64,000 nucleotides of DNA. It comes from an uncultured Collinsella sp. Lineage in GTDB: Bacteria; Actinomycetota; Coriobacteriia; Coriobacteriales; Coriobacteriaceae. Position 1 is the first letter of the stretch. Each line of letters starts with the position of its first letter. This document shows positions 27,009-57,045 of the stretch, one piece after another. The stretch covers positions 202,501-266,500 of the forward strand of contig CATWVA010000001.1 in the NCBI GenBank assembly GCA_958354105.1, read 5' to 3'. The notes beneath the pieces are model-generated. The model ran no database searches. It was not told the origin of the DNA and saw nothing but the letters and a program-made list of their open reading frames with translations. The position numbers and the translations under genes are program-made.

Positions 27009-27145
27009 TGTTCACTCCTTCTTGGGGTTTTAAGCACGGGGCGTGGCCACGATGGGTTGTCCTCGTGCCTCCTGGCTGCATCCGCGCCGCTCATGGCATT
27101 TTGCGGTTTGGACTCGACGCAGCAGGAGCCGACAAAACAATCGGT

Positions 27146-27174
27146 ACTATACGCGTATCGGGAGCGTATTTCCA
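27146..27174 (-). promoter_or_regulatory. candidate sigma-70-type promoter for the rplE-led operon
   Basis: Minus strand reads TGGAAA-17 nt-TATAGT, about 135 nt upstream of the rplE ATG and downstream of the 27229-27302 terminator. Pattern match only. Confidence 0.25.
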
Positions 27175-27228
27175 GAAAAACCTCGTCTGCCTGCACAACT
27201 CCACAACTCCCCCGCACAAATGGGTCCC

Positions 27229-27302
27229 AAAAAGCAGTTGCGGTGAAATAGGGGCTGTTGGGCGGCCTAACAGGCTTAAACAATCCGTATTTCACCGCAA
27301 CT
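27229..27302 (-). terminator. rho-independent terminator after the xdhC-like gene (left junction of the 30-kb block)
   Basis: 15-bp perfect stem agttgcggtgaaata/tatttcaccgcaact (27236-27250 / 27288-27302) with a nested ctgtt/aacag hairpin in the loop. Followed on the minus strand by gcTTTTT. Confidence 0.75.
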
Positions 27303-27319
27303 TATTGGTGGGGATGCGA

Positions 27320-28363
27320 TTAGCGCTTGCGGGGGACGAGTTTGGTACGGCGCAGGTGGATCATCTCGGCGGCGATGGAGATGGCAATCTCCTCGGGATC
27401 CTCTGCCTCGATGGCGACTCCGATCGGCAGGTGCAGCTCGTCGATCTGGTCCTGCGTAAAGCCCTCCTGCTCCAGGCGGGCGCGCACAAAGGCCGTCTTG
27501 CGACGCGAGCCCAAGCAGCCCAGATAGGCGGGTTTGGCACGCATGGCTTGGATCACCACGTCGATATCGGACTTGTGGCCTGCCGTGGCCACGACCACCA
27601 AGTCGCGCGGGCCGATGGGACACAGCCCGCTCAGGCTCTTGTAATCGACCAGGCGACGATCGTAGACACCGGGCACCCATTCGAGCGTCAGCGTGCCGGG
27701 GCGGTCATCGCACGCCACAACAGCAAAGCCCGCCGCCGTGAGCACGCGCGCCGTCGCGGCGCCCACGTGCCCGCAGCCAAAGATGTAGGTCAGGCCCTCG
27801 GGGCAGAGCGTCTCGATGTGCGCCGGGGGGATCTCGGAGGCAGCGTTGGTGTAGGTGACCTTACTCCCCTCCTCCACCAGCGAAAGCTCGGGGCAGCCGA
27901 CAATGGTATGGCGCGATGCCTCGCCATGGCACTCGGCCACATCGCCCTCGAGGGCCTGGATGACAAACGGTTCAAAGTCGATGACGAAGTCGCCGATGCG
28001 TCGATACACCAAGACGTCGGCAACCGACTGGAACAACGGCGCCTGCGATACATCCAGGTGCAGATAGCACAGGCAGATGGCTCCGCCGCAGATCATGCCG
28101 GTATCGGAGTTCTCGCCACCCATGGTGTAGCGGACCAGACGCGATTGCCCTGCGGCCAGCAGCCCGCGCGCCTCGTCCAGCGCAAAGAGCTCGATCTTGC
28201 CGCCGCCGATGGTGCCCGCTTGGCTACCATCGGCAAAGACGGCCATCCAGGCGCCCACGCCGCGCGGCGATGACCCTGCCGTGCCGGCAACTACCACCAG
28301 CTCGCACGTCTTACCAGCCTTCAGAGCGCCAAGCGCAGCATTCACCACATCGAGCTTTTCCAT
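27320..28363 (-). CDS. xdhC: XdhC/CoxI-family molybdenum-cofactor insertion accessory protein
   Basis: 347 aa. N-terminal XdhC_CoxI-like segment (ELVVVAGTAGSSPRGVGAWM) and a C-terminal Rossmann segment (YIFGCGHVGAATA). Confidence 0.8.
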   Translation of the reverse strand: MEKLDVVNAALGALKAGKTCELVVVAGTAGSSPRGVGAWMAVFADGSQAGTIGGGKIELFALDEARGLLAAGQSRLVRYTMGGENSDTGMICGGAICLCYLHLDVSQAPLFQSVADVLVYRRIGDFVIDFEPFVIQALEGDVAECHGEASRHTIVGCPELSLVEEGSKVTYTNAASEIPPAHIETLCPEGLTYIFGCGHVGAATARVLTAAGFAVVACDDRPGTLTLEWVPGVYDRRLVDYKSLSGLCPIGPRDLVVVATAGHKSDIDVVIQAMRAKPAYLGCLGSRRKTAFVRARLEQEGFTQDQIDELHLPIGVAIEAEDPEEIAISIAAEMIHLRRTKLVPRKR

Positions 28364-28372
28364 TGCAATTTC

Positions 28373-29167
28373 CTATCCCTGGAATACACCGGTGAGCGTG
28401 GCGAGCGCCTCGAGCACGCCGCCGCCGACCGACGTCGCCTTGTCCGAAATATAGTTGATATAGCTGGCATCGCCGCGTGGGTCGACGTCGGCGCACTTAA
28501 AGCCCTCGGCCACCTGAACGCCGTCGGCCAAAAGGCCGCGCAAGCAGCCGTCGATCTGCGTGATCATAGGCGTATCGTCCGCATAGCCAATCACGTCACC
28601 GGCGTGCACGATGTCGCCGATCGCGCGGTCGGACCTAAACACGCCAGCGGCGGGACTGTGGATAACGCGCTCCTTGCCATAGCCGGCGATGACACCCGGC
28701 ACGCCCGTATTGGGCTGGGGCGAGCCCTGGGTGATGACGCGGCCGAGGAAATGACCGCGCATGGTCTCGACCACGGCGTCGCAATCGACCGGCGCGGTAA
28801 AGCCCGGCCCCACGGCGATAACGACAGGCGCCATACCGCGCGTGGTGCCCAGGTTGCGCTTGGCCAGAATCGCGTCGACCACGGCAGCGGGTTTCAGTTC
28901 GTCGAGCATCTTGGCCTGGGGGTCCACCACCACGGCGACATCCCCCGCCTCGGTAATCGCAAGCGCCTCAGCCGGCGTCTGTGCCAAGCGAGCGCGAATG
29001 CCTTCGACCTCGACCTCGCCCAGGCGAATGGCCTCGCAAAAACAGATTGTGCGGCGGATGCACGTGGGAACCGCGATATCGGCCATGACGACCGACACGC
29101 CGGAGCGCACCAAGCGAGCGGCGACGCCCGTGGCGATATCGCCAGCGCCGCGAACATAAACGAGCAT
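28373..29167 (-). CDS. yqeB: YqeB-family accessory protein of the selenium-dependent molybdenum hydroxylase system
   Basis: 264 aa. MLVYVRGAGDIATGVAARL N-terminus. Size and context match the YqeB maturation family. Confidence 0.7.
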   Translation of the reverse strand: MLVYVRGAGDIATGVAARLVRSGVSVVMADIAVPTCIRRTICFCEAIRLGEVEVEGIRARLAQTPAEALAITEAGDVAVVVDPQAKMLDELKPAAVVDAILAKRNLGTTRGMAPVVIAVGPGFTAPVDCDAVVETMRGHFLGRVITQGSPQPNTGVPGVIAGYGKERVIHSPAAGVFRSDRAIGDIVHAGDVIGYADDTPMITQIDGCLRGLLADGVQVAEGFKCADVDPRGDASYINYISDKATSVGGGVLEALATLTGVFQG

Positions 29168-29269
29168 TCCCGGGGCACCTCCCTGTGCTACGGTTTGAGC
29201 AGAGCAAAAGCGGTTCGACCGCTACTCTGATGATTATTTATTATCACAGTATTATACGGCGGTGAACAG

Positions 29270-30004
29270 ATGAAAACGGTTAGCGGCAGCCTTGCCTCCG
29301 CGCTCAAGATCGAGCCGGGCATCACCGCGATCATCGGCAGCGGTGGCAAGTCGACCCTGCTAAAGACGCTCGGCCTTGAACTTATGCGTGCCGGCGGCCG
29401 CGTGCTCCTCTGCACCACCACGCACATGCTCCCCGTCGCAGGCGTGCCGTGGGACGGGTCGAGCCGTCGCCTGGATGCCGCACCTTGGAAGCCGGGGACC
29501 CTGCATGTTCCCGGCTGCACCTGCGAGGCCTGCACGGGGCTTGTGCGGGGAAGCATCTGCCAAGCTGGTGTCTTGGACCCCCAGACGGGCAAGCTCTCCT
29601 CCCCTGCCGAACCGCTCGACCAGCTGGCGCAGCGCTTTGACTACGTCCTGGCCGAGGCGGACGGCAGCAAGCGACTCCCACTCAAGGCGCACGCCGCCTG
29701 GGAGCCGGTGATTCCCTCTGGCACGGCCAACGTCGTCTGGATCGTCGGCGCCTCGGGGCTGGGCAAGCCCATCAACGAAGCCGTCCACCGCACCGAGCTC
29801 TTTTGCGAGCGTTGCGGCTGCGAGCTCACCGACATCGCCACACCCGAGCGCGTCGCCCAGGTGCTCAATGCCGAGATGCAGGCGCTGGGGCTCAGCACCG
29901 CACGCGTCATGCTCAACCAAGTCGACACGCTCAGCGACCCCACGATGGCAGATCGCTTCGAGGCAGCCCTCGGCCGCCCCATCGTCGTCACCAGCCTCAA
30001 GTAG
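29270..30004 (+). CDS. yqeC: YqeC-family selenium cofactor biosynthesis protein
   Basis: 244 aa. P-loop-like ITAIIGSGGKSTLL and EADGSKRLPLKA. Divergent from yqeB. Confidence 0.75.
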   Translation: MKTVSGSLASALKIEPGITAIIGSGGKSTLLKTLGLELMRAGGRVLLCTTTHMLPVAGVPWDGSSRRLDAAPWKPGTLHVPGCTCEACTGLVRGSICQAGVLDPQTGKLSSPAEPLDQLAQRFDYVLAEADGSKRLPLKAHAAWEPVIPSGTANVVWIVGASGLGKPINEAVHRTELFCERCGCELTDIATPERVAQVLNAEMQALGLSTARVMLNQVDTLSDPTMADRFEAALGRPIVVTSLK

Positions 30005-30014
30005 CCAGCCCCTG

Positions 30015-31382
30015 CTAGCGGGGCACGTAGCGACCGGGCTGGGCTCCGGTAGGCTCGCCGTCGCGCGCGGCCAGCACGCCGTTGACGAAGACGGCCTTGG
30101 CGCGGCCGTGCGCCTCAAAGCCCTCGAGCGGCGTGTAGTCCACGGCCTGATGCTGCGTCGCGGCACTGATCGTCCAGCGCGCCTTGGGATCCCACACGCA
30201 AACGTCGGCATCGGCACCCTCGGCAAGACAGCCCTTGCGCGGATACATGCCAAAGACGCGCGCCGGATTCTCACTCATCAGGCGGCACAGATCCTCGGGG
30301 CCCAGTTGTCCCTCAAAGCTCGTGGCAATCGCGACGGGGCGATGCTCCACACCGGGCCCGCCGTTGGGAATCGCGCGGAAGTCGTCGCGCCCGCGGTCCT
30401 TTTGCCCGTGCAGGTTAAAGCTGCAGTGGTCGGTCGCAATCGTATCGATCTCGCCGGCCACAAGCGCCTCGCGCAGTGCCGCACGATCACCCGCATGGCG
30501 CAGCGGCGGACTCATCACATACTTAGCGCCCGCAAAGCCGTCCTCGCCCTGCTCCAAGTAGCAAGTATCGTCGAGCATCAGATACTGAGGGCAGGTCTCG
30601 ACATAGATATTCTTCTGCCCGCGCGCCTTGGCGGCACGGATGGCCTCGAGCCCCAGCTTGGTCGAAAGGTGCACCACGTTGACCGGTGCGTCGCCGGCCA
30701 GATGCGCCAGATACAGCAGACGGCTCACAGCCTCGGCCTCGCACACATCCGGACGGCTGAGCGCATGTCCCTCGGGCCCATGAATCCCCTGCTCGTACAC
30801 GCGCTTCTGCAGCTCGTTCACGAGCGTGCCGTTCTCGCAATGCACGCACAGGATACCGCCCACGCGCTTGAGCTCCTCCAGCACCTCGAGCGTCTCGGCA
30901 TCGTCCAAGCGCAGGTGGTCATAGGCAAAGTAGATCTTGAACGACGATACGCCCGCCTCGCGCACGGACGAAAGATCGGCGCGGTTGCGCTCGTTCCACT
31001 CAGCGAGTGCCATATGAAAGGCGTAGTTGGCCGTGCAGGTGCCGTCGGCGCGGCGATGCCACTCGGCCAAGGCATCGGGCATGGTCACGCCGCGATCGGC
31101 CGTCGCGTAGTCGACGATGGTCGTCGTGCCGCCGCAGGCAGCCGCGCGCGTACCGGTCTCAAAGCTATCGGCTGTCCAATCCATGCCGGTCCAGCACTGC
31201 ATGTGCGTGTGGCCGTCGATAAAGCCGGGGAACACCCAACAGTCGGTGGCGTCCTGGACGGTATCGCCCTCGGCAGGCTCAATCGCCGCGGCGACCCGCA
31301 CGATCTTATCGCCATCCATGGCAAGATCGGCGCGGCGAAGCCCCTGGGGCGTCACGAGCGCGCCGTTTTTGATGATGATCAT
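30015..31382 (-). CDS. hyuA: D-hydantoinase / dihydropyrimidinase-family cyclic amidohydrolase (HyuA/YgeZ-like)
   Basis: 455 aa. FIDGHTH metal motif, SFKIYFAY (carboxylated Lys region) and VHCENG. Confidence 0.85.
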   Translation of the reverse strand: MIIIKNGALVTPQGLRRADLAMDGDKIVRVAAAIEPAEGDTVQDATDCWVFPGFIDGHTHMQCWTGMDWTADSFETGTRAAACGGTTTIVDYATADRGVTMPDALAEWHRRADGTCTANYAFHMALAEWNERNRADLSSVREAGVSSFKIYFAYDHLRLDDAETLEVLEELKRVGGILCVHCENGTLVNELQKRVYEQGIHGPEGHALSRPDVCEAEAVSRLLYLAHLAGDAPVNVVHLSTKLGLEAIRAAKARGQKNIYVETCPQYLMLDDTCYLEQGEDGFAGAKYVMSPPLRHAGDRAALREALVAGEIDTIATDHCSFNLHGQKDRGRDDFRAIPNGGPGVEHRPVAIATSFEGQLGPEDLCRLMSENPARVFGMYPRKGCLAEGADADVCVWDPKARWTISAATQHQAVDYTPLEGFEAHGRAKAVFVNGVLAARDGEPTGAQPGRYVPR

Positions 31383-31390
31383 GTTGCTCC

Positions 31391-32005
31391 TTATTGATTA
31401 ATACAGTTGGCCACGCGATCAAAATACGAGCAGGCCGCGATATGCTCCGTTATGCGTCGCTGCCCCTCGGCGGTATCGACATCCCACAGTTCATAGGCAC
31501 GCGCTTCGACCAGTGCAACGTCGACGCGGCCTTTGAGAATCGAGCCCCCGCCGTCCTTGCCCTCAAGACACATAAGCGCATCGAACAGTTCCGCCGGAAA
31601 GAGCACCGGGCTCGAAGGCTCACCGTTGCACGCAAGACGCACCGAATGCTTGCGGCCACGCTCGTCAAATGTACGAACCATAGCCTCAAAAGAATCCGAA
31701 CTCACGAGCGGCTGGTCGCCCGGCAAAAAGAGGCAACCTTTCCAGTTGCGTTCGGCTCCCCATGAAAGGCCCGCACGGACGCTTTCGCTGCGCAGCTCGC
31801 CATCATGCAGCACGCACGGGCAATGCTTGTCCTCGCAAATCTGAGCGACCTCGGGCCAACGCGTCGAAACCACGACATCAAAGCCCCGGGGAACCGAATC
31901 GATGGTCCGGGCAATCAGCGGCTCGCCATAGATATCGGCAAGCATCTTGTTGGAGCCAAACCGCTTGCCCTCGCCCGAAGCCATAATGACGCATCCAAGT
32001 TTCAT
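31391..32005 (-). CDS. MobA-like NTP transferase (YgfJ/MocA-type molybdenum cofactor nucleotidyltransferase)
   Basis: 204 aa from ATG 32005 (MKLGCVIMASGEGKRFGSNKML), preceded by AGGGGAGG. The track ORF starts further upstream. Confidence 0.75.
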   Translation of the reverse strand: MKLGCVIMASGEGKRFGSNKMLADIYGEPLIARTIDSVPRGFDVVVSTRWPEVAQICEDKHCPCVLHDGELRSESVRAGLSWGAERNWKGCLFLPGDQPLVSSDSFEAMVRTFDERGRKHSVRLACNGEPSSPVLFPAELFDALMCLEGKDGGGSILKGRVDVALVEARAYELWDVDTAEGQRRITEHIAACSYFDRVANCINQ

Positions 32006-32155
32006 GGTGATACCTCCCCTGAAACCATCGTACCCATAACTCGCGCCGCGGGCATCCACATCGAAAGCGCTTATCCCGCACGCCCGCGATGCAAAAAGGG
32101 GGCACCCCGCCGGTTGGCAGAGCGCCCCCTTTACATGGCTTACCTCAACCCGGCT

Positions 32156-33358
32156 TTAGGCCTGGAACCAACGGGCAGTGTTGCGCTCGTCGAGGGCCTT
32201 GAGGGTAGCGGCGGGATCGGCAACCTTCTGCAGGAACATCATGGCAGCGATGGCGTACGGCTTGTAGCTGGCCTCCTTGTACATGCCCACGCGGTGCATG
32301 TCGAAGACGTCGGCGTTAACCTCGCCGTGCTCGCAGGAGACACCGGAGATGTCGGCTGGCAGCGGGTGCATAAAGATGGTGTCCTGGCCGTTGGCAGTCT
32401 TCTCCATGAGTTCGGTCGTGGAGCACCAGTCCTGATGGGTGGCGTTCTGGGCGAGCAGCTCCTTCTCGAGCGCTGCGATGCCGGCGTCGTCGCCCTCGGC
32501 GTACAGGTTGGTGCGCTTCTCCATGGCGGCAAACGGAGCCCAGCTCTTGGGGATCACGATGTCGGCACCCTCGAAGGCCTCGGCCATGGTGTTGACCTGC
32601 TTAAAGGTGGTGCCGGACTCGGCGGCATAGCCCTTGGCGCGCTCGACGACCTCGGGCATGAGGTCGTAGCCCTCGGGGTGGGCCAGGGTGACGTCCATGC
32701 CAAAGCGAGGCAGCAGGCTGATCAGCGACTGCGGGCAGGACAGCGGCTTGCCGTAAGAGGGCGAGTAGGCCCAGGTGACGGCAACCTTCTTGCCCTTGAG
32801 GTTCTCAAGACCGCCAAACTCGTTGATGAGGTAGAGCATGTCGGCAGAGGACTGCGTGGGGTGGTCGGAATCGGACTGCAGGGAGATGAGCGTGGGACGG
32901 TGATCCAGAACGCCGTCCTCGTAGGCCTGCTGCACGGACTCGGAAACCTCGGCCATGTAGGCGTCGCCCTTGCCGATGTACATGTCGTCGCGGATGCCGA
33001 TGACGTCGGCCATGAAGGAGATCATGGTAGCGGTCTCGCGGACGGTCTCGCCGTGAGCGATCTGGGACTTCTTCTCGTCCAGGTCCTGCAGCTCAAGGCC
33101 GAGCAGGTTGGCGGCCTTAGAGAAGGAGAAGCGCGTACGGGTGGAGTTGTCGCGGAACAGGGAGACGGCCAGGCCCGAGTCGAAGATCTTGGACGAAACG
33201 TTGTTCTCGCGCAGCTCGCGCAGGGCGTCGGCGACGATGTAGAGAGCCTTGAGCTCGTCGGTGGTCTTGTCCCAAGTGTGCAGGAAGTCGCTGCCGTACA
33301 TACCCTTAAAATCGAGGCCGTTCAGCTGCTCGACGAGCTCGGTAAACTTAGCGTCCAT
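32156..33358 (-). CDS. ygeW: YgeW-type knotted carbamoyltransferase
   Basis: 400 aa. Aspartate/ornithine carbamoyltransferase fold (STRTRFSF, HPLPA-type motif) with the length and context of YgeW. Confidence 0.85.
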   Translation of the reverse strand: MDAKFTELVEQLNGLDFKGMYGSDFLHTWDKTTDELKALYIVADALRELRENNVSSKIFDSGLAVSLFRDNSTRTRFSFSKAANLLGLELQDLDEKKSQIAHGETVRETATMISFMADVIGIRDDMYIGKGDAYMAEVSESVQQAYEDGVLDHRPTLISLQSDSDHPTQSSADMLYLINEFGGLENLKGKKVAVTWAYSPSYGKPLSCPQSLISLLPRFGMDVTLAHPEGYDLMPEVVERAKGYAAESGTTFKQVNTMAEAFEGADIVIPKSWAPFAAMEKRTNLYAEGDDAGIAALEKELLAQNATHQDWCSTTELMEKTANGQDTIFMHPLPADISGVSCEHGEVNADVFDMHRVGMYKEASYKPYAIAAMMFLQKVADPAATLKALDERNTARWFQA

Positions 33359-33559: not shown

Positions 33560-34945
33560 CTAATCGATCTTGTTGTTGGTCAGACCGGCGCGGAACACGG
33601 TGGCGTCGCCATCGGCCTGGCTCGGATCGTAGAGGTTCAGGGCAGCCACATACATGGCGGCAGCGGTGACCAGGTCGTCCTTGTAGGTGACCTCGTTGGG
33701 AGCGTGAGCCTGAGACTCGGCACCCGGGCCAAAGCCCACGCAGGGGATGCCGTAGCGGCCCTGGATGGAAACGCAGTTCGTGGAGAAGGTCCACTTGTCG
33801 CACAGCGGGCGACCGGTGCGCTTATCCATGCTGGGCTCGCAGCCGATGCGCTCGTCACCAAACATGGCCTTGTGGGCGTCGACAAGGGCCTTGACGTGCG
33901 GAGCGGTCTCCTTGTTGATCCACGTAGGGAAGTAAGCCTCGGTCTCGTAGACCTCGCCGGTCCAGGACGGACGGTCGTACATGTACATGGAGACCTTCAC
34001 GTCGTCGCCGTACTTCTTGGCAGCCGGCAGGTTGCGGATCTCGTCCAGGCAGGACTCCCAGGTCTCACCGGCGGTCATGCGACGGTCGATGGAGATGGCG
34101 CAGGAATCAGCCACGGCGCAACGGCTGGGGCTGGTGTAGAAAATCTGGCTGACGGTGCAGGTGCCGCGGCCCAGGAAGCGGGCGTCCTCAAAGTGCTCGG
34201 GATTGTACTTGGGGTCGAGCATCTTGACGAGGCCCTTGATGTCGGTCGACTCGTCGCAGCCGTTGTTGTTGAGGGCGCGGACGTCGGCGATGATGTCGGC
34301 CATCTTGTAGATGGCGTTGTCGCCGCGGTCGGGAGCGGAGCCGTGGCAGGAGGTACCGTGAACGTCAACGCGGATCTCCATGCGGCCGCGGTGACCGCGA
34401 TAGATGCCGCCGTCGGTGGGCTCGGTGGAAATGACGAACTCGGGCTTAATGCCGTCCTTGTTGTAGATGTACTGCCAGCACATGCCGTCGCAGTCCTCTT
34501 CCTGGACGGTGCCGACGACCATGATCTTGTAACCCTCGGGGATGAGGCCCATGTCCTTCATCATCTTGGCAGCGTAGGTAGCGGAAGCCATGCCGCCCTC
34601 CTGGTCAGAGCCGCCGCGGCCGTAGATGATCTCGTCGGTCTCGTAGCCCTCATAGGGATCGGCGTCCCAGTTCTCGATGTTGCCGATGCCGACGGTGTCG
34701 ATGTGGGAGTCGATGGCGATGATCTTGTCGCCCTCGCCCATAAAGCCCATGACGTTGCCCAGGCCGTCGACCTTGACCTCGTCATAGCCAAGGCTCTCCA
34801 TCTCGGCCTTGATGCAGGCAACAACCTCACCCTCCTCGCAGGACTCAGAAGGGTGGGAGATCATAGCGCGCAGGAAGCGAGTCATATCAGCACGATGAGA
34901 CTCAGCAGCAGCCTTGATAGCGTCGAAATCGAGTTCTTTAGCCAT
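33560..34945 (-). CDS. ygeY: YgeY-family M20 metallohydrolase (selenium metabolism-linked)
   Basis: 461 aa. M20 peptidase motifs ([19 protein letters not shown]) in ygeW/ygeX context. Confidence 0.85.
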
Positions 34946-38477: not shown

Positions 38478-38673
38478 GGGAAACCAACGCCGTTCACGCG
38501 TCATTTCGCAGGCGGCGCTTGATTTCTGTCCGTACACGTTGATAGGCTTTCTCTTGCCCGCAAGCAGCGGGCGCGTTTTATCCAGAGTCGGGGTAGAGAG
38601 TTGGCTCCACGATCCCGACGCCAACCGGCCAAGAGGCACGGTGGCCCTGCCAACATCGATGAAAGGAGTCCGT

Positions 38674-46518: not shown

Positions 46519-46617
46519 AGTGAGCTCCTCTCTGTAACGCCCGGCGAGACCGCGCGGCGGGCGCAAATACGGTGTAGCGCTAGCACAGCGCCGGCGACCC
46601 CGCGGAGGCCGCCTATA

Positions 46618-46651
46618 CGCGCGTCGGATGCGGCGAAACATCCGACGCGCG
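46618..46651 (-). other. GC-rich 13-bp perfect hairpin between ssnA and ygfK
   Basis: cgcgcgtcggatg-N8-catccgacgcgcg. No U-tract follows, so it is not a canonical terminator. Confidence 0.5.
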
Positions 46652-48023: not shown

Positions 48024-48218
48024 GAATGCTCCCTTCAACATCAGGGGCGGGGTTTGACACCTCTGACATGGCGGAGTGCGAAGCGCCGGCCTACACCGGA
48101 AACGGGCCCTCTCCCGTCAACGCTTCACCAAAGGGACAAACCCTTTGAAGTGCGGTTTGGCGCCGCATGACGTCGGCGGACGAGGCGATGCGCCCGCCGA
48201 CGAATAGCACCGAATTGG

Positions 48219-49613: not shown

Positions 49614-49965
49614 TTGACCACCAATCCTCGAAATAGTTGTTTTCGCATCTAACGCTCTATTGTGACGCAGTGCGGGGTTGAGGTTGTGCCTTCGTTGGAT
49701 ATCGTATTAAAGATGGTTCTTATTCTCAATAATAATTTTTTGTTATCAGACTATTCTTAAGCTGAAATAACTCGTTTCCGCAGGTCAGGAATGTGTCTGG
49801 TCTAAATAACATCTTACTTTTCTTTTGGTCGACCGTTTACCGCCAAAATCATACCGTTCGTCTGCATTACGCAATGTACCTGCGGATATACGAGATGATG
49901 AGCAGCGTGTTACCATGAGAAAAAATTGTTATGAACATTTCCGATTTCACCCAAAGGAGTTACCC

Positions 49966-50622
49966 GTGAACGAGACCGTACGCCGCTTTTTGCCGATGGT
50001 CGATTTCTTGGAGCAGATACTCGGTAAGAACAGCGAGATCGTGCTGCACGATTTCTCGGATCCCGACCACGCCATCGTCGATATTCGCAACGGCATCGTG
50101 AGTGGCCGCAAGGTCGGCGGTCCCGCCACCGATCTGGCGCTCAAGATCATGCACGACCCCAAGTATCGCGACCTGCCGTTTATTACGGGCTACGAGGGCC
50201 GCGGCGCCGGAGGCAAGACGCTGGAGTCCGCGACGTTCTTTATCCGCGAGGATGACGAGATCGTCGGTATGCTCTGCGTCAACACCGACCTCTCGACCGT
50301 GCGCTCCATCAACGCCATGGCGCAGCAGCTCATGGCGTGCTTCGACGCGGCGCCGACGCGCACGGAGCCCGCCCCTATCGAGGTCGAAAGCCTTTCGGAG
50401 TCCACACAGGAGCTCATCGACCGCAGCATTGCCGAGTTGCTGAGCGCGCGCGGGCTGGATGTAGCGTCGCTTGGTCAGAGCGACCGCGTGGACGTCATTC
50501 GCCACCTCAACGGCAACGGGGTGTTCATGCTCAAGGGCGCCGTGGCCTGTGCCGCCACCGCGTTGGGCATCTCGGAGCCCAGCGTGTACCGCTACCTGCA
50601 AAAAGTCCGCAAGGAGGGCTAA
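49966..50622 (+). CDS. YheO-like transcriptional regulator, paralog 2
   Basis: 218 aa from GTG 49966, preceded by AAAGGAG. Has SEIVLHDFSDPDHAIVDIRNGIVSGRKVGGP and the C-terminal ATALGISEPSVYRYLQK. The track ORF starts at 49825. Confidence 0.75.
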   Translation: MNETVRRFLPMVDFLEQILGKNSEIVLHDFSDPDHAIVDIRNGIVSGRKVGGPATDLALKIMHDPKYRDLPFITGYEGRGAGGKTLESATFFIREDDEIVGMLCVNTDLSTVRSINAMAQQLMACFDAAPTRTEPAPIEVESLSESTQELIDRSIAELLSARGLDVASLGQSDRVDVIRHLNGNGVFMLKGAVACAATALGISEPSVYRYLQKVRKEG

Positions 50623-50734: not shown

Positions 50735-51112
50735 TTAGAGAGCGGCGACGACCTCGATCTCGACCAGACCGCCAGCCGGAAGAGCGGCAACCTGAAAAGC
50801 GCTGCGCGCGGGGAACGGGGCCTCGAACTTGGAGGCGTAGATCTCGTTTACGGCAGCGAAGTCGGCAATGTCAGCCAGGTAGACTGTGGTCTTGACGACA
50901 TCGGCAAAGGTGGCGCCGGCAGCGGTCAGCAGGGCCTCGACGTTAGCAAGGGACTGCTTGGCCTGGGCCTCGACGCCCTCGGGCATCTTGCCAGTTGCGG
51001 GATCGATGCCCAGCTGGCCGGACAGGAACACCATGTTGCCGGTCTGGATACCAGGGGAATACGGGCCGATGGCTGCGGGTGCGTTATCGGAAGACACGAC
51101 GGTCTTGCTCAT
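50735..51112 (-). CDS. ridA: RidA-family reactive enamine/imine deaminase
   Basis: 125 aa from ATG 51112 (MSKTVVSSDNAPAAIGPYSPGI), preceded by AAGGAG. YjgF/RidA signature. Confidence 0.9.
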   Translation of the reverse strand: MSKTVVSSDNAPAAIGPYSPGIQTGNMVFLSGQLGIDPATGKMPEGVEAQAKQSLANVEALLTAAGATFADVVKTTVYLADIADFAAVNEIYASKFEAPFPARSAFQVAALPAGGLVEIEVVAAL

Positions 51113-51410
51113 GTTTTTCTCCTTACAAGTAAAAGGGAACGAGAGCGCGGCGTTCACACCGGGAGGCACAGTTCGGTCTGAACACCGCGCTTGATTGGGA
51201 TAGTACTCAAGGTTTCCGCGCGATGCAAGATTATTATCACGTTGCGAGAATATTTTATCGTCCAACGGTTTCCCTGGACCGCTGAACGGTTCTCCACGGG
51301 GTCAGCCAGCCCAAGCTGCTGAAGACTTTATCCCGCTTGGAGCACGGGCATCGCCTGCCGCGACGGCACCACTATACTTTCGAGTATCTGAGCATTTTGA
51401 AAGGCAGGAT

Positions 51411-53906
51411 ATGACCGCAACCGCCAGTCGAACCACCAACCGCAGACCCGAGCTTTTAGCGCCCGCCGGAGGGCCCGAGCCCTTTGCCGCCGCACTCGCC
51501 GCCGGGGCAGACGCCATCTACTGCGGCATGGGCAGCTTCAACGCCCGCCGCAAGGCAACGAACTTTACCGACGAGGCCTTTGAGCAGGCCTGCCGTGCTG
51601 CACACCTGGCCGGCTCGCGCGTCTACGTCACGGTCAACATCGTCATCAAGGAATCCGAGATGAGCGATGCGCTGCAGCTCATCCATCGCTGCTCCACGCT
51701 GGGCGCTGACGCCTTCATCATCCAGGACTGGGGCCTGTTCTTTGAGGTCAAGCGCACCATGCCCGGCATCGAGACGCACATCTCAACCCAAGCAAACATC
51801 CACGACGACCGCGGAACCCTTTGGTGCCGTGAGCAGGGCGCCGACCGCGTGACCCTCTCGCGCGAGCTTTCCATCGACGAGATTGCCACCATTCACGACG
51901 CTGCGCCCGATGTTGACCTTGAGGTCTTTAGCCACGGCGCCATCTGCTTTTGCTACTCGGGTCTGTGCCTGCTGTCGAGCTTTGCCATGGCGGGCCGCTC
52001 GGCCAACCGCGGCATGTGCGCTCAGCCCTGTCGCCTACCCTACGAGCTAATTGACGAGAACGGCCGCTCGCTCTCCCCTGCCGGTCGCGAGCGCGCACTG
52101 TGCCCGCGCGACACCAACACTTCGCAGCTTGTTCGCCGTCTGTATGACGCCGGCGCCGCATCGCTCAAGCTCGAGGGCCGCATGAAGGCTCCCGATTACG
52201 TGTACTCCATCGTCGATGTGTACCGTCACCAGATTGATGACATGCTTGCCGATGTTTCGACCTCTAAGGATGAGGATGCCGCCCGCCAGCGCCAGCTCAA
52301 GCGCTGCTTTAACCGCGACTTTACGCACGCCTACCAGGATGGCACCTCGGGCGACGAGATGATGAGCTACGAGCGCTCCAACAACCGCGGCCAGATTGTG
52401 GGCACGGTGCTGGGCAGCCGCCTGGCCAACCGCGATGTACGCGGACTCAAGCCCGACGATCGCCGTCGCCGCGCCGCCATCGCCCGCATTGAGCTGTTTG
52501 AGCCCGTGGGCAAGGGCGACCTGCTGGAGCTTCGCCACGATAACGAGTTTGACCAGTTCCTGACCACCATTGCCGCCGATGATGCCGCTGCCGGCGATGT
52601 TATCGAGTGTCGCGTGCCCCGTAGCATGCCCGAGGGCTGCCGCGTGCGCGTGATTCGAAGCCAGCGCGCCATTGACGCCGCCGGCGCCGCGCTCAAGCGC
52701 GATGTGCTGCGCCGCCGCGCCGTAGACGTGTCCGTTGTGGCGCGTCTGGGCGAGCCGTTTGCCGTTGCGCTCACCTGTTGCGACGATCCTTCGCTTACGG
52801 CCACGGCCACGGGCTTTACCGTCGAGGCTGCCAAGACCCGCGCCGTCGAGGCATCCGATCTGGTTGAGCACGTCGGGCGCATGGGCTCCTCCCCCTTTGA
52901 GGCCGCAAGCTTTGACGTTTCGCTCGACGCCGGCTGCGGTATGGGCTTTTCCGCCGTGCACAAGGTGCGCGCCGCCGCTTGTAAGGCGCTGGAAGAGGCC
53001 ATTCTGGCACCGTACGAGGAGCGCACGAAAACGCTCGAGCTGCCGGCGATTGTAACCAGTGATTCCCGCCCCGCGCCCGAGCACTACCGCGATGAGCCGC
53101 AGATCTGTGCCACCGTCACCTCGCTCGAGGCCGCCGAGGCCGCTCGCGCCGAGGGTGTAACGCGCATCTACATGACCACCGACGCGCTCGATGCGGCCGA
53201 GCTCTCCCCCGCCGATGCATTTGAGCAGGGCATCGTACCCGTGCTCGACGAGGTCTGCCGCGCCGTTGACCACGTACGCGTCGACCCGTGGGTTGTTGCC
53301 GGCGCCACGGTCGCTATTGGCAACATCTCTGAGCTTGCCCTGGCCGCCCAGGTTGGCGCTACGGCCGAGATTCGCTCTTGCCTGCCGGTACACAACACGC
53401 CCTGCATGGAGGCGCTTGCCGAGCGCGGAGCCGGTGCGTTTTGGCTCTCGCCCGAGATCACGCTCGACGAGATTGTCTCGCTCGGCACCGCCGCGCCCGC
53501 GGCTCTAGGCATCACCGTCTTTGGCCGCCCGCGCGTCATGACAAGCGAGCATTGCATTCTGCAGGTTGCCAACGGCTGCATCCACGATTGTGCCAACTGC
53601 CGCTTGCGCGCCCGCAAGCTGTCGCTCAAGAATATCGACGGAAAGGTCATGCCCGTGCGTACCGACATCCATGGCCGCTCTCGCTTGTACGACGCCTACC
53701 CCATCGACCTTACGCCGCAGGTACCACAGCTGCTCGACGCCGGCGTCCGTCGTCTTATGGTCGACGGAACCCTGCTCGAGGCCGATGAGATTGGCCGTGC
53801 CGTCGCTCGCGTCCGTCGCGCCGTCGAGGCGGCTCAAGCCGGCCGCAAGCCCGCCGCCCGTCTGCGCGGCGCCACCTCGGGCTGCATGTTTGTGGGAATT
53901 AGCTAA
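51411..53906 (+). CDS. U32 family protein, very long form (831 aa)
   Basis: PELLAPAGGPEPFAAALAAGADAIYCGMGSFNARR N-terminus. It is a paralog of the 9932-11890 gene with a long C-terminal extension. Confidence 0.85.
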   Translation: MTATASRTTNRRPELLAPAGGPEPFAAALAAGADAIYCGMGSFNARRKATNFTDEAFEQACRAAHLAGSRVYVTVNIVIKESEMSDALQLIHRCSTLGADAFIIQDWGLFFEVKRTMPGIETHISTQANIHDDRGTLWCREQGADRVTLSRELSIDEIATIHDAAPDVDLEVFSHGAICFCYSGLCLLSSFAMAGRSANRGMCAQPCRLPYELIDENGRSLSPAGRERALCPRDTNTSQLVRRLYDAGAASLKLEGRMKAPDYVYSIVDVYRHQIDDMLADVSTSKDEDAARQRQLKRCFNRDFTHAYQDGTSGDEMMSYERSNNRGQIVGTVLGSRLANRDVRGLKPDDRRRRAAIARIELFEPVGKGDLLELRHDNEFDQFLTTIAADDAAAGDVIECRVPRSMPEGCRVRVIRSQRAIDAAGAALKRDVLRRRAVDVSVVARLGEPFAVALTCCDDPSLTATATGFTVEAAKTRAVEASDLVEHVGRMGSSPFEAASFDVSLDAGCGMGFSAVHKVRAAACKALEEAILAPYEERTKTLELPAIVTSDSRPAPEHYRDEPQICATVTSLEAAEAARAEGVTRIYMTTDALDAAELSPADAFEQGIVPVLDEVCRAVDHVRVDPWVVAGATVAIGNISELALAAQVGATAEIRSCLPVHNTPCMEALAERGAGAFWLSPEITLDEIVSLGTAAPAALGITVFGRPRVMTSEHCILQVANGCIHDCANCRLRARKLSLKNIDGKVMPVRTDIHGRSRLYDAYPIDLTPQVPQLLDAGVRRLMVDGTLLEADEIGRAVARVRRAVEAAQAGRKPAARLRGATSGCMFVGIS

Positions 53907-53921
53907 CCGAAAGGCTTACAC

Positions 53922-54581
53922 GTGAACGAAGAACCTCAAGTCCTCTACTGCGACGCCTGGCTCATGGCCATCGATAAGCCCGCTGGCATGATCGTCCACG
54001 GTGACGGCACCGGCGAGCGCACGCTCACCGACTACGCCAGCGACCTGCTGCTGGCGATGGGCGACGGCTTTGCCGCGACTGACATGCAGCCGCTCAACCG
54101 CCTGGACCGCAACACCACCGGCGTGGTGTTGTTCTCGCTCGACAAGCAGACGCAGCCCGCCTTTGACCAGATGATTATCGACCACGCTTTCGAAAAGCAC
54201 TACCTGGCGCTCGCCGAGGGCAAAATCGACTGGAACGAGAAGCTCATCGACAAGCCCATCGCCCGCGCCCGTCACGACAGCCGAAAGATGCGCGTCGGCG
54301 CCAGCGGCAAGCCGTCTCAAACGCGCGTCAAGGTGCTCAAGCGTCTTAAGAGCCGTCGTGGTCTGCCCACGCGCTCGTATATCGATGTCGAGTTACTCAC
54401 CGGCCGCAAGCATCAGATTCGCGTGCACCTGGCGAGCGAGCGTCATCCCCTTGTTGGCGACGACCTATACGGAACGCCGCGCCCCTGCGGCCTGATGCTC
54501 CACGCCCACAGCGTGTCCTTCACGCATCCCGTAACCGGCGAGCATATCTATATCGAAGCCCCCTGCCCCTGGGAGCCCTAA
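53922..54581 (+). CDS. RluA-family pseudouridine synthase
   Basis: 219 aa with a GTG start. Has RLDRNTTGV (catalytic Asp) and GRKHQIRVHLA. Confidence 0.88.
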   Translation: MNEEPQVLYCDAWLMAIDKPAGMIVHGDGTGERTLTDYASDLLLAMGDGFAATDMQPLNRLDRNTTGVVLFSLDKQTQPAFDQMIIDHAFEKHYLALAEGKIDWNEKLIDKPIARARHDSRKMRVGASGKPSQTRVKVLKRLKSRRGLPTRSYIDVELLTGRKHQIRVHLASERHPLVGDDLYGTPRPCGLMLHAHSVSFTHPVTGEHIYIEAPCPWEP

Positions 54582-54610: not shown

Positions 54611-54629
54611 GGCAGGTTTTATCTGGGCA

Positions 54630-54676
54630 AACGTCAAAACCACCACAAAGGTTCCTGCCCCTTCGCGGTGGTTTTG
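54630..54676 (-). terminator. rho-independent terminator after the DeoR gene
   Basis: Stem aaaccacc/ggtggttt with a roughly 22-nt loop, followed on the minus strand by TTTTGACGTTT. Confidence 0.55.
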
Positions 54677-54697
54677 GCCTTAGCCCGTCCCCTGTTG

Positions 54698-55444
54698 TTA
54701 GACCGTGATGACGTTGTCCATTGCCCGGTACTTGGCGGGGACCTCGCCCGCGGTAATAATCGTTGCGTCGCGGAAGTCCGCAAACTTGACGGGCGCCACC
54801 ATGCCAAATTTACTGGCGTCCGAGATTACGAAGCGCTTGGCTGTATGACGCATCGAGATGCGCTTTACTTGCGCTTCCTCGATATCGGGCGCCGTGAAGC
54901 CCTGCTCGGCGGCAATGCCGTTAGAGCCCCAAAAGCCACAGTTGAAGTTGTAGCGGTCTAAGGTTGCCAAGGCATCGGGGCCAACGAGCGCCTCGGTCTC
55001 GGGTTTGAGCTCGCCGCCCAGCACCACGGTACGCATGCCGCGCAAAGCAAGGCGCTGAGCATGGAGCACGGAATCGGTCACATAGGTGACATCTTCAAGG
55101 TGTGGAAGATGCTCGATGAGCCTGAGCGTCGTCGATCCCGAGTCGATGTATACAAAGCTCTCAGGCTCCACCAGCGCTGCCGCACGGGCGCAGATACGCT
55201 CCTTGTCGTCGTTGTGCAGATCGCTGCGCTCATTGAGCGTCAGGTCGCGCGTCACGTGCGCACGCTCAAGGCTCGTCGCTCCACCGTGGACCTTGGCGAT
55301 GCGGTGTGCGCGGTCGAGCGTCTGCAGGTCGCGCCGAATGGTAGACGCCGTCACACCCAGTGCCTCAGCAAGCTCTGGCACGGTAACCGAGCCAGCCTGC
55401 TGCACCATCGATACGATCGCGTTGAGCCTATCTTCCGCAAGCAT
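54698..55444 (-). CDS. DeoR/GlpR-family transcriptional repressor
   Basis: 248 aa. N-terminal HTH (VTVPELAEALGVTASTIRRDLQTL) and a DeoR C-terminal sensor domain. Confidence 0.88.
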   Translation of the reverse strand: MLAEDRLNAIVSMVQQAGSVTVPELAEALGVTASTIRRDLQTLDRAHRIAKVHGGATSLERAHVTRDLTLNERSDLHNDDKERICARAAALVEPESFVYIDSGSTTLRLIEHLPHLEDVTYVTDSVLHAQRLALRGMRTVVLGGELKPETEALVGPDALATLDRYNFNCGFWGSNGIAAEQGFTAPDIEEAQVKRISMRHTAKRFVISDASKFGMVAPVKFADFRDATIITAGEVPAKYRAMDNVITV

Positions 55445-55447
55445 CGC

Positions 55448-56527
55448 TTACTCCTCCTCGGGGTACACGACTCCCCAGTCGGCGCGAAGCTTGGTCATAA
55501 GCTCCATAACATCAGAAGCATAATCCAGCAGCTCGCGCTTGGAGTCGTCGCCGGCAACGGCCTTCTCAAGATCGGCCATCTCATAGCAAAGGGCGTAAGC
55601 CTCGGTGCCGGCGTTGACCTCCTCGCGGTGGCCATCCTCAGTCCACACGATGGTCGCGTGATCGGCGCGCGGATAATCGTTGACCTCGATATAGCACTTG
55701 TCGAAGCTAATGACCGAACGCTTGGGCTGCTTGGAGTGGAGCGTAAGGCTCACCACGCCCAGCTGCTGTTCGGCATTACGGCAGACGATGCCGCCCGCAA
55801 CGTCAACACCGGTCTCGCAGGTGTTGCCCAGCGAAACGACCTCAGCGGGCTGGCTTGCCATAAAGAGACGCATGACGGACAGGGCATACACGCCAATATC
55901 GAGCATGGCACCGCCAGCAAGGTTGCGGTTGTAGAAGCGATTGGTCAGATCGCCGTACTCCTTATAGCTGCCAAAGTTGAGCTGGGCGAGATTCATGCGG
56001 CCGAACTCACCGACATCCATGCGGCGACGCAGCTCCTGATACAAAGGCATGTGGAGCACCGTGGTGGCGTCCATAAGGACAACGTTGTGCTCGTTGGCAA
56101 TGGCGCGGGCCTCGTCGAGCTCGGCAGAATTGAGGGTGATAGCCTTTTCACAGAGCACGTGCTTGCCAGCTGCCAGAGCGGCTCGCAGGTAGGTGATGTG
56201 AGTGTTGTGCGGCGTGGTGATATAGACTGCGTCAATGTTCGAATCGGCATAGAGGTCCTCGACCGTTTCATAGACCTTCTCAACGCCATGCTGCTCTGCA
56301 AAAGCCTGAGCCTTGGATAGTGTGCGGTTGGCAACGCCCGCAAGCTTGCGGCCGGCAAGAGAGAGAGACTGGGCCATCTGGTTGGCGATAACACCGCAAC
56401 CGATCACTGCCCAGCGGAGCTCGGGGGCCGTAAAAATATCGTTGGGGAATGGCTTGTCCTGGACCGAGGCAAATGCCACCTTAGCGGCTGCTTCGGCGTC
56501 GAGCGGAGCCTGTTTGGAATCTGCCAT
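55448..56527 (-). CDS. Gfo/Idh/MocA-family NAD(P)-dependent oxidoreductase
   Basis: 359 aa. Rossmann N-terminus RWAVIGCGVIANQMAQ and EKAITLN. Forms an operon with the DeoR gene (3-nt gap). Confidence 0.85.
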   Translation of the reverse strand: MADSKQAPLDAEAAAKVAFASVQDKPFPNDIFTAPELRWAVIGCGVIANQMAQSLSLAGRKLAGVANRTLSKAQAFAEQHGVEKVYETVEDLYADSNIDAVYITTPHNTHITYLRAALAAGKHVLCEKAITLNSAELDEARAIANEHNVVLMDATTVLHMPLYQELRRRMDVGEFGRMNLAQLNFGSYKEYGDLTNRFYNRNLAGGAMLDIGVYALSVMRLFMASQPAEVVSLGNTCETGVDVAGGIVCRNAEQQLGVVSLTLHSKQPKRSVISFDKCYIEVNDYPRADHATIVWTEDGHREEVNAGTEAYALCYEMADLEKAVAGDDSKRELLDYASDVMELMTKLRADWGVVYPEEE

Positions 56528-56578
56528 GATGTGCCTCCTAAGTCATCGGAAGTCCTTCATTTCTAACAACCCTATATT

Positions 56579-56592
56579 CGCACAATTGTGCG
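56579..56592. promoter_or_regulatory. 14-bp perfect palindrome cgcacaattgtgcg upstream of the oxidoreductase-DeoR operon (candidate operator)
   Basis: Read directly, about 52 nt upstream of the ATG at 56527. Confidence 0.35.
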
Positions 56593-56668
56593 CGTATCTA
56601 CTCGTGTTTGCGTGTTTATTTGCTTATCGGTCTATATTTTGCCATGTTTGGCAGATGTCTGTGCGGCT

Positions 56669-56708
56669 ATGCGCATTATCGCGCAAGGCTATGCGCATAA
56701 ATGCGCAT
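56669..56708. promoter_or_regulatory. three copies of the palindromic octamer ATGCGCAT (candidate operator array)
   Basis: Copies at 56669-56676, 56691-56698 and 56701-56708. The first two are embedded in a repeated ggctatgcgcat. Confidence 0.35.
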
Positions 56709-56804
56709 GCGACGATCCTTGTGAAACATTAAGGAACGAACACCATAGCCATAAAAGACAGAGTAGGCTGTATTACTCCACCCCTCTGGGGGCACCAGAC
56801 ATCA

Positions 56805-56977
56805 AAGGACCGTCCCAAACTGCCGGCACATAGGGACTGTCCCCAACGACTGGTCATTTAAGTCTGCCCCCAATGAATGGTCCCCAATAAATGCCAAGCG
56901 ACTTCCACTCATTTAAGTCTGTCCCCAATGAGTATGGGCATTTCCGCGGCACTCATTTAAGTCTGTCCCCAATGAGT
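56805..56977. repeat. GTCCCC-core repeat cluster D (at least 6 units; right junction of the 30-kb block)
   Basis: Cores at 56812, 56839, 56866 (gccccc), 56880, 56921 and 56965. The identical 28-mer cactcatttaagtctgtccccaatgagt occurs at 56907-56934 and 56950-56977 (and at 8401-8428). Confidence 0.85.
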
Positions 56978-56984
56978 AGGGATA

Positions 56985-57016
56985 GAAAAAGGCCCGGGTG
57001 CCTTGGCATCCGGGCC
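56985..57016 (-). terminator. rho-independent terminator after rplX
   Basis: Stem ggcccgg(g)tgc / gca(t)ccgggcc, followed on the minus strand by TTTTT. It starts 30 nt after the rplX stop. Confidence 0.75.
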
Positions 57017-57045
57017 TTTGCTAGCAACTTGATGTTGCGAGCAGC

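Follow-up and report, generated by a model that had tools for sequence, protein, structure and literature searches.

Ribosomal protein (r-protein) operons have a textbook gene order, fixed by the need for equal amounts of the subunits, which raises the question of how such an order could come apart. The question is posed by a 64,000-nucleotide stretch of DNA from an uncultured Collinsella species (contig CATWVA010000001.1, positions 202,501 to 266,500; the whole stretch is called the window below). The window has a GC content of about 60%, its genome belongs to the Collinsella aerofaciens group, and it holds the spc r-protein operon in two pieces, parted between rplX (L24) and rplE (L5). As set out below, the whole is best explained, and in our view with high probability, by a gap that grew step by step at a regulatory seam already in place, rather than through a single recent insertion.

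The spc operon is split between rplX and rplE

All members of the spc operon are present in the window on a single strand and in the canonical order (rplN-rplX-rplE-rpsN-rpsH and onwards), and 30,037 bp separate the rplX stop from the rplE start. Both genes lie on the minus strand and retain their usual order, and the gap between them holds 23 genes, 18 on the minus and five on the plus strand. A sequence-only reading of this DNA had described the same split, and the NCBIfam equivalogs and coordinates given here confirm it.

57852..62834, minus strand: S10-type unit rplC-rplD-rplW-rplB-rpsS-rplV-rpsC-rplP-rpmC-rpsQ, from the layout of open reading frames (ORFs); rpsQ is an NCBIfam equivalog, and the same order is Pfam-labelled in related contigs
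57365-57733, minus strand: rplN (NCBIfam TIGR01067, 185 bits, above cut-off)
57046-57351, minus strand: rplX (NCBIfam TIGR01079, 120 bits, above cut-off)
26451-27008, minus strand: rplE (NCBIfam equivalog above cut-off)
within 17154..27008, minus strand: rpsN (type-Z) and rpsH, downstream of rplE (NCBIfam equivalogs above cut-off)
17154..27008, minus strand: string from rplE to rplQ, the remainder assigned by ORF layout and by Pfam labels on identical strings in related contigs

In this lineage, the 5' end of the spc operon survives as a remnant of two genes, rplN and rplX. The adjacency of rplX and rplE had been taken as nearly universal in bacteria, and 83 loci from other phyla and classes agree with this, their gap being 3-237 nt with a median of 38. 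Instead of a spacer of tens of nucleotides within one transcription unit, the window has 23 genes and two predicted terminator hairpins at this place.

The split could be an artefact of assembly, in which two regions were misjoined at repeats and rplX and rplE are truly adjacent. Repeats do adjoin rplX, and the draft assembly of Collinsella sp. An2, for one, stops 184 bp past this gene. However, dozens of independent assemblies from varied projects and assemblers repeat both junctions, including contigs of 1-2.5 Mb with a gap of 40-51 kb. Identical RplX and RplE are found in roughly 70,000 assembly blocks, and the same junctions occur in all 20 of the places listed: downstream of rplX come non-ribosomal genes (GFO-DeoR in nine cases, and in a further one a sugar-uptake cassette), and in the 10 rplE places listed this gene is preceded by XdhC or by XdhC and an extra permease. 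Three contigs of 2.1-2.4 Mb carry both rplX and rplE, with gaps of 40,432, 43,462 and 51,422 bp, and the 30-kb version of the window is the shortest among the four full-length gaps measured. Furthermore, 60 loci were fetched in which RplX is at least 97% identical to that of the window; 41 of them reach at least 9 kb downstream, rplE was found in none of the 41, and an empty site with rplX next to rplE was not seen in these 60 C. aerofaciens-group loci. Because both junctions recur across independent assemblies and adjacent rplE is absent from all 41 loci, misassembly is excluded, the chance of an artefact being negligible.

The gap widens by degrees across the Coriobacteriia

Relatives were reached by an outward walk through L24 homologues, in which a first search reached Collinsella alone and two more, from distant L24 sequences, reached Coriobacterium, Enorma and Atopobiaceae. 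The sample of Eggerthellaceae and Atopobiaceae is small and consists mostly of metagenome-assembled genomes (MAGs), hence the figures for these families hold among the matches listed. The junction is already wider in every Coriobacteriia locus examined. In Eggerthellaceae and unclassified Coriobacteriia, rplX and rplE are neighbours with no gene between them and a spacer of 91-334 nt by tblastn coordinates, and the two genes are likewise adjacent in an Atopobium MAG, with a gap of 307 nt. Single genes are found at the next step: an Olsenella MAG has one same-strand DUF4282 gene in a spacer of 1,053-1,057 nt, Coriobacterium glomerans PW2 has one opposite-strand Mem_trans gene in a gap of about 1.7 kb, and two metagenome lineages have a 2-hydroxyacid-dehydrogenase-like gene (L123) and an ORF of 97 amino acids (L124), respectively. 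In a second Collinsella group the gap is 4.7 kb and is filled by RluA, U32 and PTS EIIA alone, in Collinsella sp. An307 it is 5.9 kb, and in C. aerofaciens it reaches 30-51 kb. A split junction is likewise seen in C. vaginalis and Collinsella sp. zg1085 (with KdgT, MFS and amidohydrolase genes as neighbours), in C. phocaeensis (with GFO, DeoR, U32 and RNase R) and in Enorma phocaeensis (with rpiB, rpe, PTS, DeoR and U32), and every further Collinsella, Enorma, Coriobacterium or Olsenella locus examined is split with other genes inside.

The series is graded and the inserts differ by lineage, therefore the junction has been used repeatedly and independently. The split is at least as old as the family Coriobacteriaceae, an old lineage trait; the sequence-only reading had allowed for this, noting that an arrangement shared by relatives would be old while the split itself stands, and the synteny comparison finds the relatives split too. 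Its main picture, a single 30-kb block inserted into an intact operon, is contradicted by the widened junction in all Coriobacteriia loci examined, by the different single genes and by gaps that range from 4.7 to 51 kb within Collinsella.

The two halves might instead have been parted by rearrangement, through a translocation or a pair of inversions, with no part played by insertions at a fixed junction. Rearrangement is a common route to the disconnection of operon clusters according to an earlier study (PMC8046335), and many strains have rpsJ away from rplC as well. Nevertheless, strand and order are retained in every genome, the distance increases smoothly among relatives, from about 0.1 kb at the low end to 51 kb, by way of single-gene intermediates, and the differences between strains are discrete insertions within the gap, which leaves rearrangement very unlikely.

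A separate observation concerns L24 itself. The Coriobacteriia protein has a C-terminal CPxC...CKKC zinc-ribbon motif, and that of the window (rplX, 57046-57351) gives a weak NCBIfam match to the zinc-binding YnfU; in the L124 metagenome lineage, L24 is longer and lacks these cysteines.

The block is layered and varies between strains

The genes of the block differ in how widely they are shared, and the block is layered by age. U32 is found in the same junction of distant Collinsella and Enorma at 61-70% identity, RluA in the same gap of distant Collinsella at 51-54% identity, and GFO (74%) and DeoR (59%) are common to the gaps of the window and of C. phocaeensis. The uric-acid genes, by contrast, were found in C. 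aerofaciens-group loci only and not in the other Collinsella examined.

The largest variation between strains lies in the middle of the block (37.2-40.2 kb of the window; about 10.7-20.6 kb in L193-L200), which is a hypervariable hotspot. Depending on the strain, it contains type I restriction-modification, GmrSD, AAA_14/DUF4143, integrase, ISL3/IS21, AbiEi, EcoRII with Dcm, or helicase/MZB genes, and it explains much of the 30-51 kb range in length; the window has three small genes there. In addition, some strains have a PTS gene or insertion sequences in the rplX-proximal part. Where insertion sequences or an integrase occur in other strains, they are inside the block as secondary insertions.

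The rplX-proximal edge carries a repeat array:

56851-56981, minus strand: palindromic repeat array, three copies of a 29-32 nt unit CACTCATTGGGGACAGACTTAAATGAGTG, with related GGGAC elements at 56807-56849

The unit forms an 8-bp stem with a 13-nt loop, and nearly all C. aerofaciens-group loci have between one and three copies of it about 75 nt after rplX, the number varying from strain to strain. The sequence-only reading had noted GTCCCC-core repeats at this edge; the array is indeed there, with its three units and GGGAC elements, but it does not qualify as an insertion scar. A fourth copy is found well away from the block, at 8396-8432, whereas shuffled sequences give none, and because this copy is outside the block the repeat is regarded as a dispersed element. 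Nine loci carry a cassette for sugar uptake and a GH172 enzyme between rplX and the array; it measures about 9.8 kb (PNP, PTS-Man, GH172, ROK) and sits in the 5' arm of the first palindromic repeat with CC(C/T)ACTC on both sides (L010 10370-10380 and 20130-20175). Since the cassette is inserted inside this arm, the repeat may be a recombination target.

These properties bear on the possibility that a single, fairly recent 30-kb island with purine catabolism was transferred horizontally into an intact spc operon. The repeats bound the block on one side, and a self-contained, patchily distributed catabolic pathway, confined among the loci examined to the C. aerofaciens group, is what such an island would bring. 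On the other hand, the composition of the block is not atypical: its tetranucleotide frequencies correlate with those of the non-ribosomal left flank at r = 0.975 (either against the ribosomal genes gives 0.85), its GC content is 0.619 against 0.610 for the flank, and GC3 is similar. This comparison had been proposed along with the original reading, whose statement that the block has no integrase or transposase also holds for the window (family, NCBIfam and PADLOC scans of the block genes). Mobility genes with flanking repeats or att sites are not found, the repeats being at one edge only and also elsewhere in the window, and there is no pattern of presence and absence around an intact empty site, given that distant relatives hold other genes there and that none of the other loci examined from Collinsella, Enorma, Coriobacterium and Olsenella has an unsplit junction. 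Moreover, U32, RluA, DeoR and GFO are common to distant relatives at 51-74% identity, and the strain-variable region cuts the uric-acid cluster in two. A single island is thus improbable, though the uric-acid pathway by itself may have come by transfer, into a gap that already existed.

A predicted regulatory seam at rplE

Four elements at the edges of the gap suggest how the r-protein genes on both sides could be expressed despite repeated insertion.

56984-57019, minus strand: predicted intrinsic terminator behind rplX, consisting of a GC-rich hairpin (9+3 bp) and then UUUUUCU (terminator scan, inverted repeat)
27229-27300, minus strand: long hairpin and U-run after xdhC, a predicted terminator, with a stem of about 15 bp followed by CUGCUUUUU (z = -5.35)
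27146-27174, minus strand: promoter-like site for the rplE unit, TGGAAA-17-TATAGT, with the -10 context CGCGTATAGTA
27009..27130, minus strand: structured 5' leader of rplE, with helix P1 (27119-27128 with 27069-27079) and helix P2 (within 27054-27068 and 27024-27042)

The putative terminator after rplX starts 27 nt past the stop codon, and its hairpin has a minimum free energy of -34.5 kcal/mol against -18.5 for shuffles (z = -5.55); its sequence is kept in strain L010, with 99.3% identity over the aligned 1,027 nt. The hairpin after xdhC was missed by the simple terminator scan, for which its loop is too long. Both hairpins had been proposed in the sequence-only reading, which also held that the string from rplE onwards needs its own promoter; both are recovered by the folding calculations, and the conserved promoter-like site is a candidate for that promoter. 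It lies about 10 nt upstream of P1 and is conserved as TCTGGCA...ACGCGTATCATACCGA in the distant Collinsella loci L030 and L034. The motif CGYGTATASTA occurs only twice in the window, at this site and at 63017-63027, upstream of the leader of rplC described below.

The leader of rplE consists of two adjacent hairpins, a U/A-rich stretch and a Shine-Dalgarno sequence directly upstream of the gene. In the window, P2 has 8-nt arms, GCACGAGG and CCCCGUGC, which are followed by UUAAAACCCC and the Shine-Dalgarno sequence AAGGAG. The leader is present in most Coriobacteriia examined, including all of the unsplit ones, and matched changes in P2 can be read by eye across genera (GCACG/CGUGC, GCGCG/CGCGC, GCGUG/CACGC, GUGCG/CGCAC). 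With 15 diverse sequences, RNAalifold gives 15 pairs, of which 11 have compensatory double changes. Paired cells make up 96.4% of the alignment, compared with 79.7% in shuffled versions; neither this pairing nor the covariation is equalled in any of 500 shuffles, and sliding the 3' partners by 1-3 columns lowers the pairing to 37-53%. The leader thus has the conserved, covarying structure in the 5' untranslated region (UTR) by which an r-protein leader (r-leader) is recognized.

A covariance model (R1) built from the 15-sequence alignment finds at most one match per locus, which always abuts the rplE start. It scores 44-83 bits in Eggerthellaceae and Atopobiaceae and 18.6-25.4 bits in Collinsella (rough E-values of 3e-5 to 0.02), and its sole match in the window is at 27006-27098 (25.2 bits, rough E-value 8e-5). 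No match was found in Streptomyces, Firmicutes or other outgroups, save for one marginal, truncated match (13 bits, E-value about 1) at a contig end. No Rfam 15 family was found at the leader, either at the gathering score over the whole window or at permissive E-values on the leader region and three canonical leader loci. In the leader region, E-values up to 10 gave only chance matches to microRNA (miRNA) and long non-coding RNA (lncRNA) families, which come from long hairpins, and the sole match in the window at the gathering score is a SAM riboswitch elsewhere.

Other features of the leader were considered beside these two helices. A third, closing helix (AUGR/YCAU) is weakly supported (80% of cells paired, one covarying pair, matched by 8 of 500 shuffles) and is not claimed. 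An upstream ORF starting at a conserved AUG before P1 was set aside, as the AUG is absent in Coriobacteriaceae and the frames are not conserved. In P1, CUCCU in the 5' arm complements the Shine-Dalgarno sequence and AGGAGG in the 3' arm resembles one, an observation from which no mechanism is drawn. In C. glomerans, the rplE product as called (L026 9982-10680) has about 47 additional N-terminal amino acids, rich in Ala and Lys, and is 232 against 185 amino acids long.

The rplX/rplE boundary is a known regulatory seam, because in E. coli S8 acts at the rplE start: it binds the spc mRNA there and represses L5 and the distal genes by translational coupling, while L14 and L24 are controlled separately by retro-regulation of rplN-rplX (PMC3616713). 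Most of the E. coli regulatory RNAs of this kind are restricted to Gammaproteobacteria (PMC3616713). The Coriobacteriia leader sits at the same boundary, parting the L14/L24 pair from the unit led by L5, although the site in E. coli reaches into the coding sequence of rplE and mimics helix 21 of 16S rRNA, whereas the Coriobacteriia leader lies wholly upstream of the start codon. By analogy, the leader could serve as an autoregulatory operator bound by an r-protein encoded downstream, which would be S8 by position or L5 as the product of the first gene.

The junction was probably an autonomous regulatory seam before genes moved in; the seam is judged to be older than the insertions because the leader is present in unsplit Coriobacteriia and the promoter-like site precedes it in Collinsella. 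The following sequence of events is proposed. In the Coriobacteriia, the two-hairpin leader at rplE would have marked the rplX/rplE boundary as an autonomous regulatory seam, and in the Coriobacteriales the seam would have gained a terminator after rplX and a promoter before the leader. Provided that the promoter-like site fires and that the hairpins terminate, rplN-rplX and the string from rplE to rplQ could then be separate transcription units, and DNA between terminator and promoter would no longer disturb r-protein expression. Transcriptional uncoupling would thus have preceded the insertions. Olsenella, Coriobacterium and two metagenome lineages would each have received a single gene, the Collinsella/Enorma lineage U32 and RluA at an early stage, and the C. 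aerofaciens group the uric-acid pathway; in many strains, restriction and defence genes, insertion sequences and sugar-uptake cassettes would have come in as well.

Alternatively, the operon could still be one unit, either because the spc promoter reads through 30 kb or because co-directional genes of the block supply the rplE transcripts. The co-directional genes number 18 of 23 and include two by rplX (GFO, DeoR) and two by rplE (YqeB, XdhC), and in unsplit Eggerthellaceae such as L039, where the spacer has 69 nt, the leader lies within a polycistronic message. Against this stand the strong hairpins with U-tracts after rplX and xdhC, the five genes on the opposite strand and the conserved promoter-like site about 10 nt upstream of the leader. 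Furthermore, the uric-acid genes are inducible, according to bioRxiv 10.1101/2022.07.24.501321, and would be ill-suited to the constitutive supply of r-proteins. It would be surprising, on this balance, if rplE still depended on transcription from upstream.

Several points weigh against an old, autonomous seam. The promoter and the terminators are predicted, as is the absence of read-through, and the count of CGYGTATASTA is not significant alone, since 33 of 100 shuffles also reach 2; the information in this motif is in its placement and conservation only. R1 misses C. glomerans, whose leader has long insertions. The leader of the window scores only 25 bits and its own fold is not better than shuffles (z = -0.23), so that its membership rests on conserved sequence blocks and on the compensatory changes in P2 read by eye. 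The leader is made of two adjacent simple hairpins with a single purine bulge, and comparison by eye with the E. coli S8 site as described in PMC3616713 found neither a hairpin over the rplE start nor the helix-21 core; a look, also by eye, for likeness to 5S rRNA or to the helix-21 site of S8 on 16S rRNA gave nothing convincing. Lastly, the order of events, with the promoter first and the genes after, rests on the small sample of Eggerthellaceae and Atopobiaceae and is undated.

A second leader and a possible seam at rplC

The predicted autonomous seam at rplE has a possible counterpart further upstream, in front of the S10-type unit.

62855-62906, minus strand: second structured leader, upstream of rplC, with 21 predicted pairs in the consensus, 9 of them compensatory
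63017-63027, minus strand: promoter-like CGTGTATACTA upstream of the rplC leader, sharing the CGYGTATASTA context

This leader combines an outer helix (GUGGUC/GACCAC) with an inner hairpin, in which compensatory changes are numerous, and with a small hairpin that covers the start codon. It is also found in L021, L023, L024, L026-L028, L030, L031, L034, L035 and L038. No Rfam family was found at it, at the gathering score across the window or at permissive E-values on the rplC region. In this lineage rpsJ is not beside rplC: in the window a histidine-phosphatase gene (63294-63920) precedes rplC, and related contigs have a cation-efflux gene after it and then either rpsJ or unrelated ACC and PTS genes (L002, L026-L030). 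Between rpsJ and rplC there are 391 nt and no gene in C. glomerans, and one or two genes in the other relatives, and rpsJ/rplC is a second permissive junction in the S10 string.

It can tentatively be proposed, as a suggestion that falls just short of evenly balanced, that at least two undescribed r-protein leaders of the Coriobacteriia, at rplE and rplC, cut the S10-spc string into self-regulating modules, and that the rplE leader is an independent counterpart of the S8 operator which makes its boundary the sole place within the operon where insertion carries no penalty. If true, this would explain why unrelated genes, and then 30-51 kb with the uric-acid pathway, which is relevant to the host, and a defence hotspot, piled up exactly there.

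Near this second junction, just downstream of the histidine-phosphatase gene, the window also has a near-perfect inverted repeat with arms of about 40 bp (63086-63257), which gives spurious Rfam matches of the miRNA type and could be a terminator or a small mobile element.

Genes of the block

From rplE to rplX, the block contains the following features.

27320-28363, minus strand: XdhC-family maturation factor, in the rplE-proximal half of the uric-acid cluster
28373-29167, minus strand: YqeB, NCBIfam equivalog above cut-off
29270-30004, plus strand: YqeC, rplE-proximal half
30015-31382, minus strand: D-hydantoinase HyuA, NCBIfam equivalog above cut-off
31391-32059, minus strand: MobA-like nucleotidyltransferase, rplE-proximal half
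32156-33358, minus strand: YgeW, NCBIfam equivalog above cut-off
33560-34945, minus strand: YgeY, NCBIfam equivalog above cut-off
35020-36234, minus strand: YgeX, NCBIfam equivalog above cut-off
36512-37165, plus strand: first YheO-type regulator, rplE-proximal half
37289-38275, plus strand: hypothetical membrane-anchored protein of about 328 amino acids, mid-block
38575-38665, plus strand: SAM-I riboswitch RF00162 (Rfam, 45.1 bits against a gathering score of 44.4)
38659-39126, plus strand: ORF of about 140-155 amino acids without family assignment, directly behind the SAM-I riboswitch, conserved in other strains
39198-39878, minus strand: DEDDh/KapD-like exonuclease (generic DEDDh/KapD matches, below cut-off)
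40239-43016, minus strand: selenium-dependent xanthine dehydrogenase (NCBIfam Se_dep_XDH, 1123 bits, above cut-off)
43029-43508, minus strand: 4Fe-4S ferredoxin (Pfam)
43519-46641, minus strand: YgfK, NCBIfam equivalog (1281 bits, above cut-off)
46668-48041, minus strand: SsnA, NCBIfam equivalog (632 bits, above cut-off)
48219-49613, minus strand: xanthine/uracil permease (Pfam)
49825-50622, plus strand: second YheO-type regulator (Pfam)
50735-51265, minus strand: RidA (Pfam), called with 125 amino acids in other strains, which would put the start at about 51112
51411-53906, plus strand: U32 peptidase (family assignment), an older resident of the gap
53922-54581, plus strand: RluA-family pseudouridine synthase (family assignment), an older resident of the gap
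54698-55444, minus strand: DeoR regulator (family assignment), an older resident of the gap
55448-56527, minus strand: GFO/Idh/MocA oxidoreductase (family assignment), an older resident of the gap

The NCBIfam equivalogs and family assignments uphold the earlier description of the block as purine/urate catabolism with U32, RluA, DeoR and oxidoreductase genes. All seven proteins that define the 2,8-dioxopurine uric-acid pathway, as set out in bioRxiv 10.1101/2025.04.24.650524, are NCBIfam equivalogs above curated cut-offs, and YqeB and YqeC are also present. Judged by these assignments, the block carries the complete pathway, which is already known. C. aerofaciens ATCC 25986 is one of the three organisms in which the cluster was found by its induction with uric acid in RNA-seq, according to bioRxiv 10.1101/2022.07.24.501321. 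The window has the same gene cluster as these gut anaerobes and lacks carbamate kinase in it, as reported for ATCC 25986, although here the cluster forms two halves parted by the strain-variable region. The passages searched of the two papers do not mention a location of the cluster at rplX/rplE.

The order of the rplE-proximal genes is identical in all 10 rplE contigs and is also found in eight YheO contigs, some with minor additions, for example an extra permease next to rplE in some strains and a carbamate kinase gene in one strain. The ORF linked to the riboswitch (38659-39126) matched no Pfam, NCBIfam or PADLOC family, and PADLOC and NCBIfam scans of the two mid-block ORFs without assignment returned nothing.

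Relation to known systems and significance

The disconnection of operon clusters, according to PMC8046335, usually begins with the insertion of a few genes. The Coriobacteriia junction resembles this pattern in that few genes come first and wider separation later, through independent events in different lineages, with the r-protein order otherwise kept. The insertions of that pattern fall between operons, in Gammaproteobacteria and Bacilli, whereas here they fall inside spc, between its second and third genes, in Actinomycetota. The two halves also remain co-linear while the gap reaches 30-51 kb, which is unlike the pattern given there.

The leader resembles the r-leaders of Eckert & Weinberg 2020 (PMC7247131) and the r-leader families of Rfam in being a lineage-restricted structured 5' UTR with covariation; in PMC7247131 neither rplE nor uL5 occurs, and an L31 leader is the sole one listed for Coriobacteria. 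No account of a split between rplX and rplE came up in literature searches. The metabolic content of the block and the disconnection of operons by insertion are already known, and what is new is the position inside an operon, the size of the gap, the living intermediates and two leader RNAs that are absent from Rfam.

To conclude, the constraint that holds r-protein genes together has been broken inside the operon of a very common human gut bacterium, and living intermediates show how. The break lies at a boundary that is regulatory in E. coli and carries an RNA leader, which suggests that regulatory seams decide where operons part. The locus offers two candidate regulatory RNAs and a natural system for asking how L14 and L24 keep step with L5 and the later proteins without co-transcription. 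Furthermore, it places a medically studied uric-acid pathway directly upstream of highly expressed ribosomal genes and by a defence hotspot, which may matter for expression and for strain typing.

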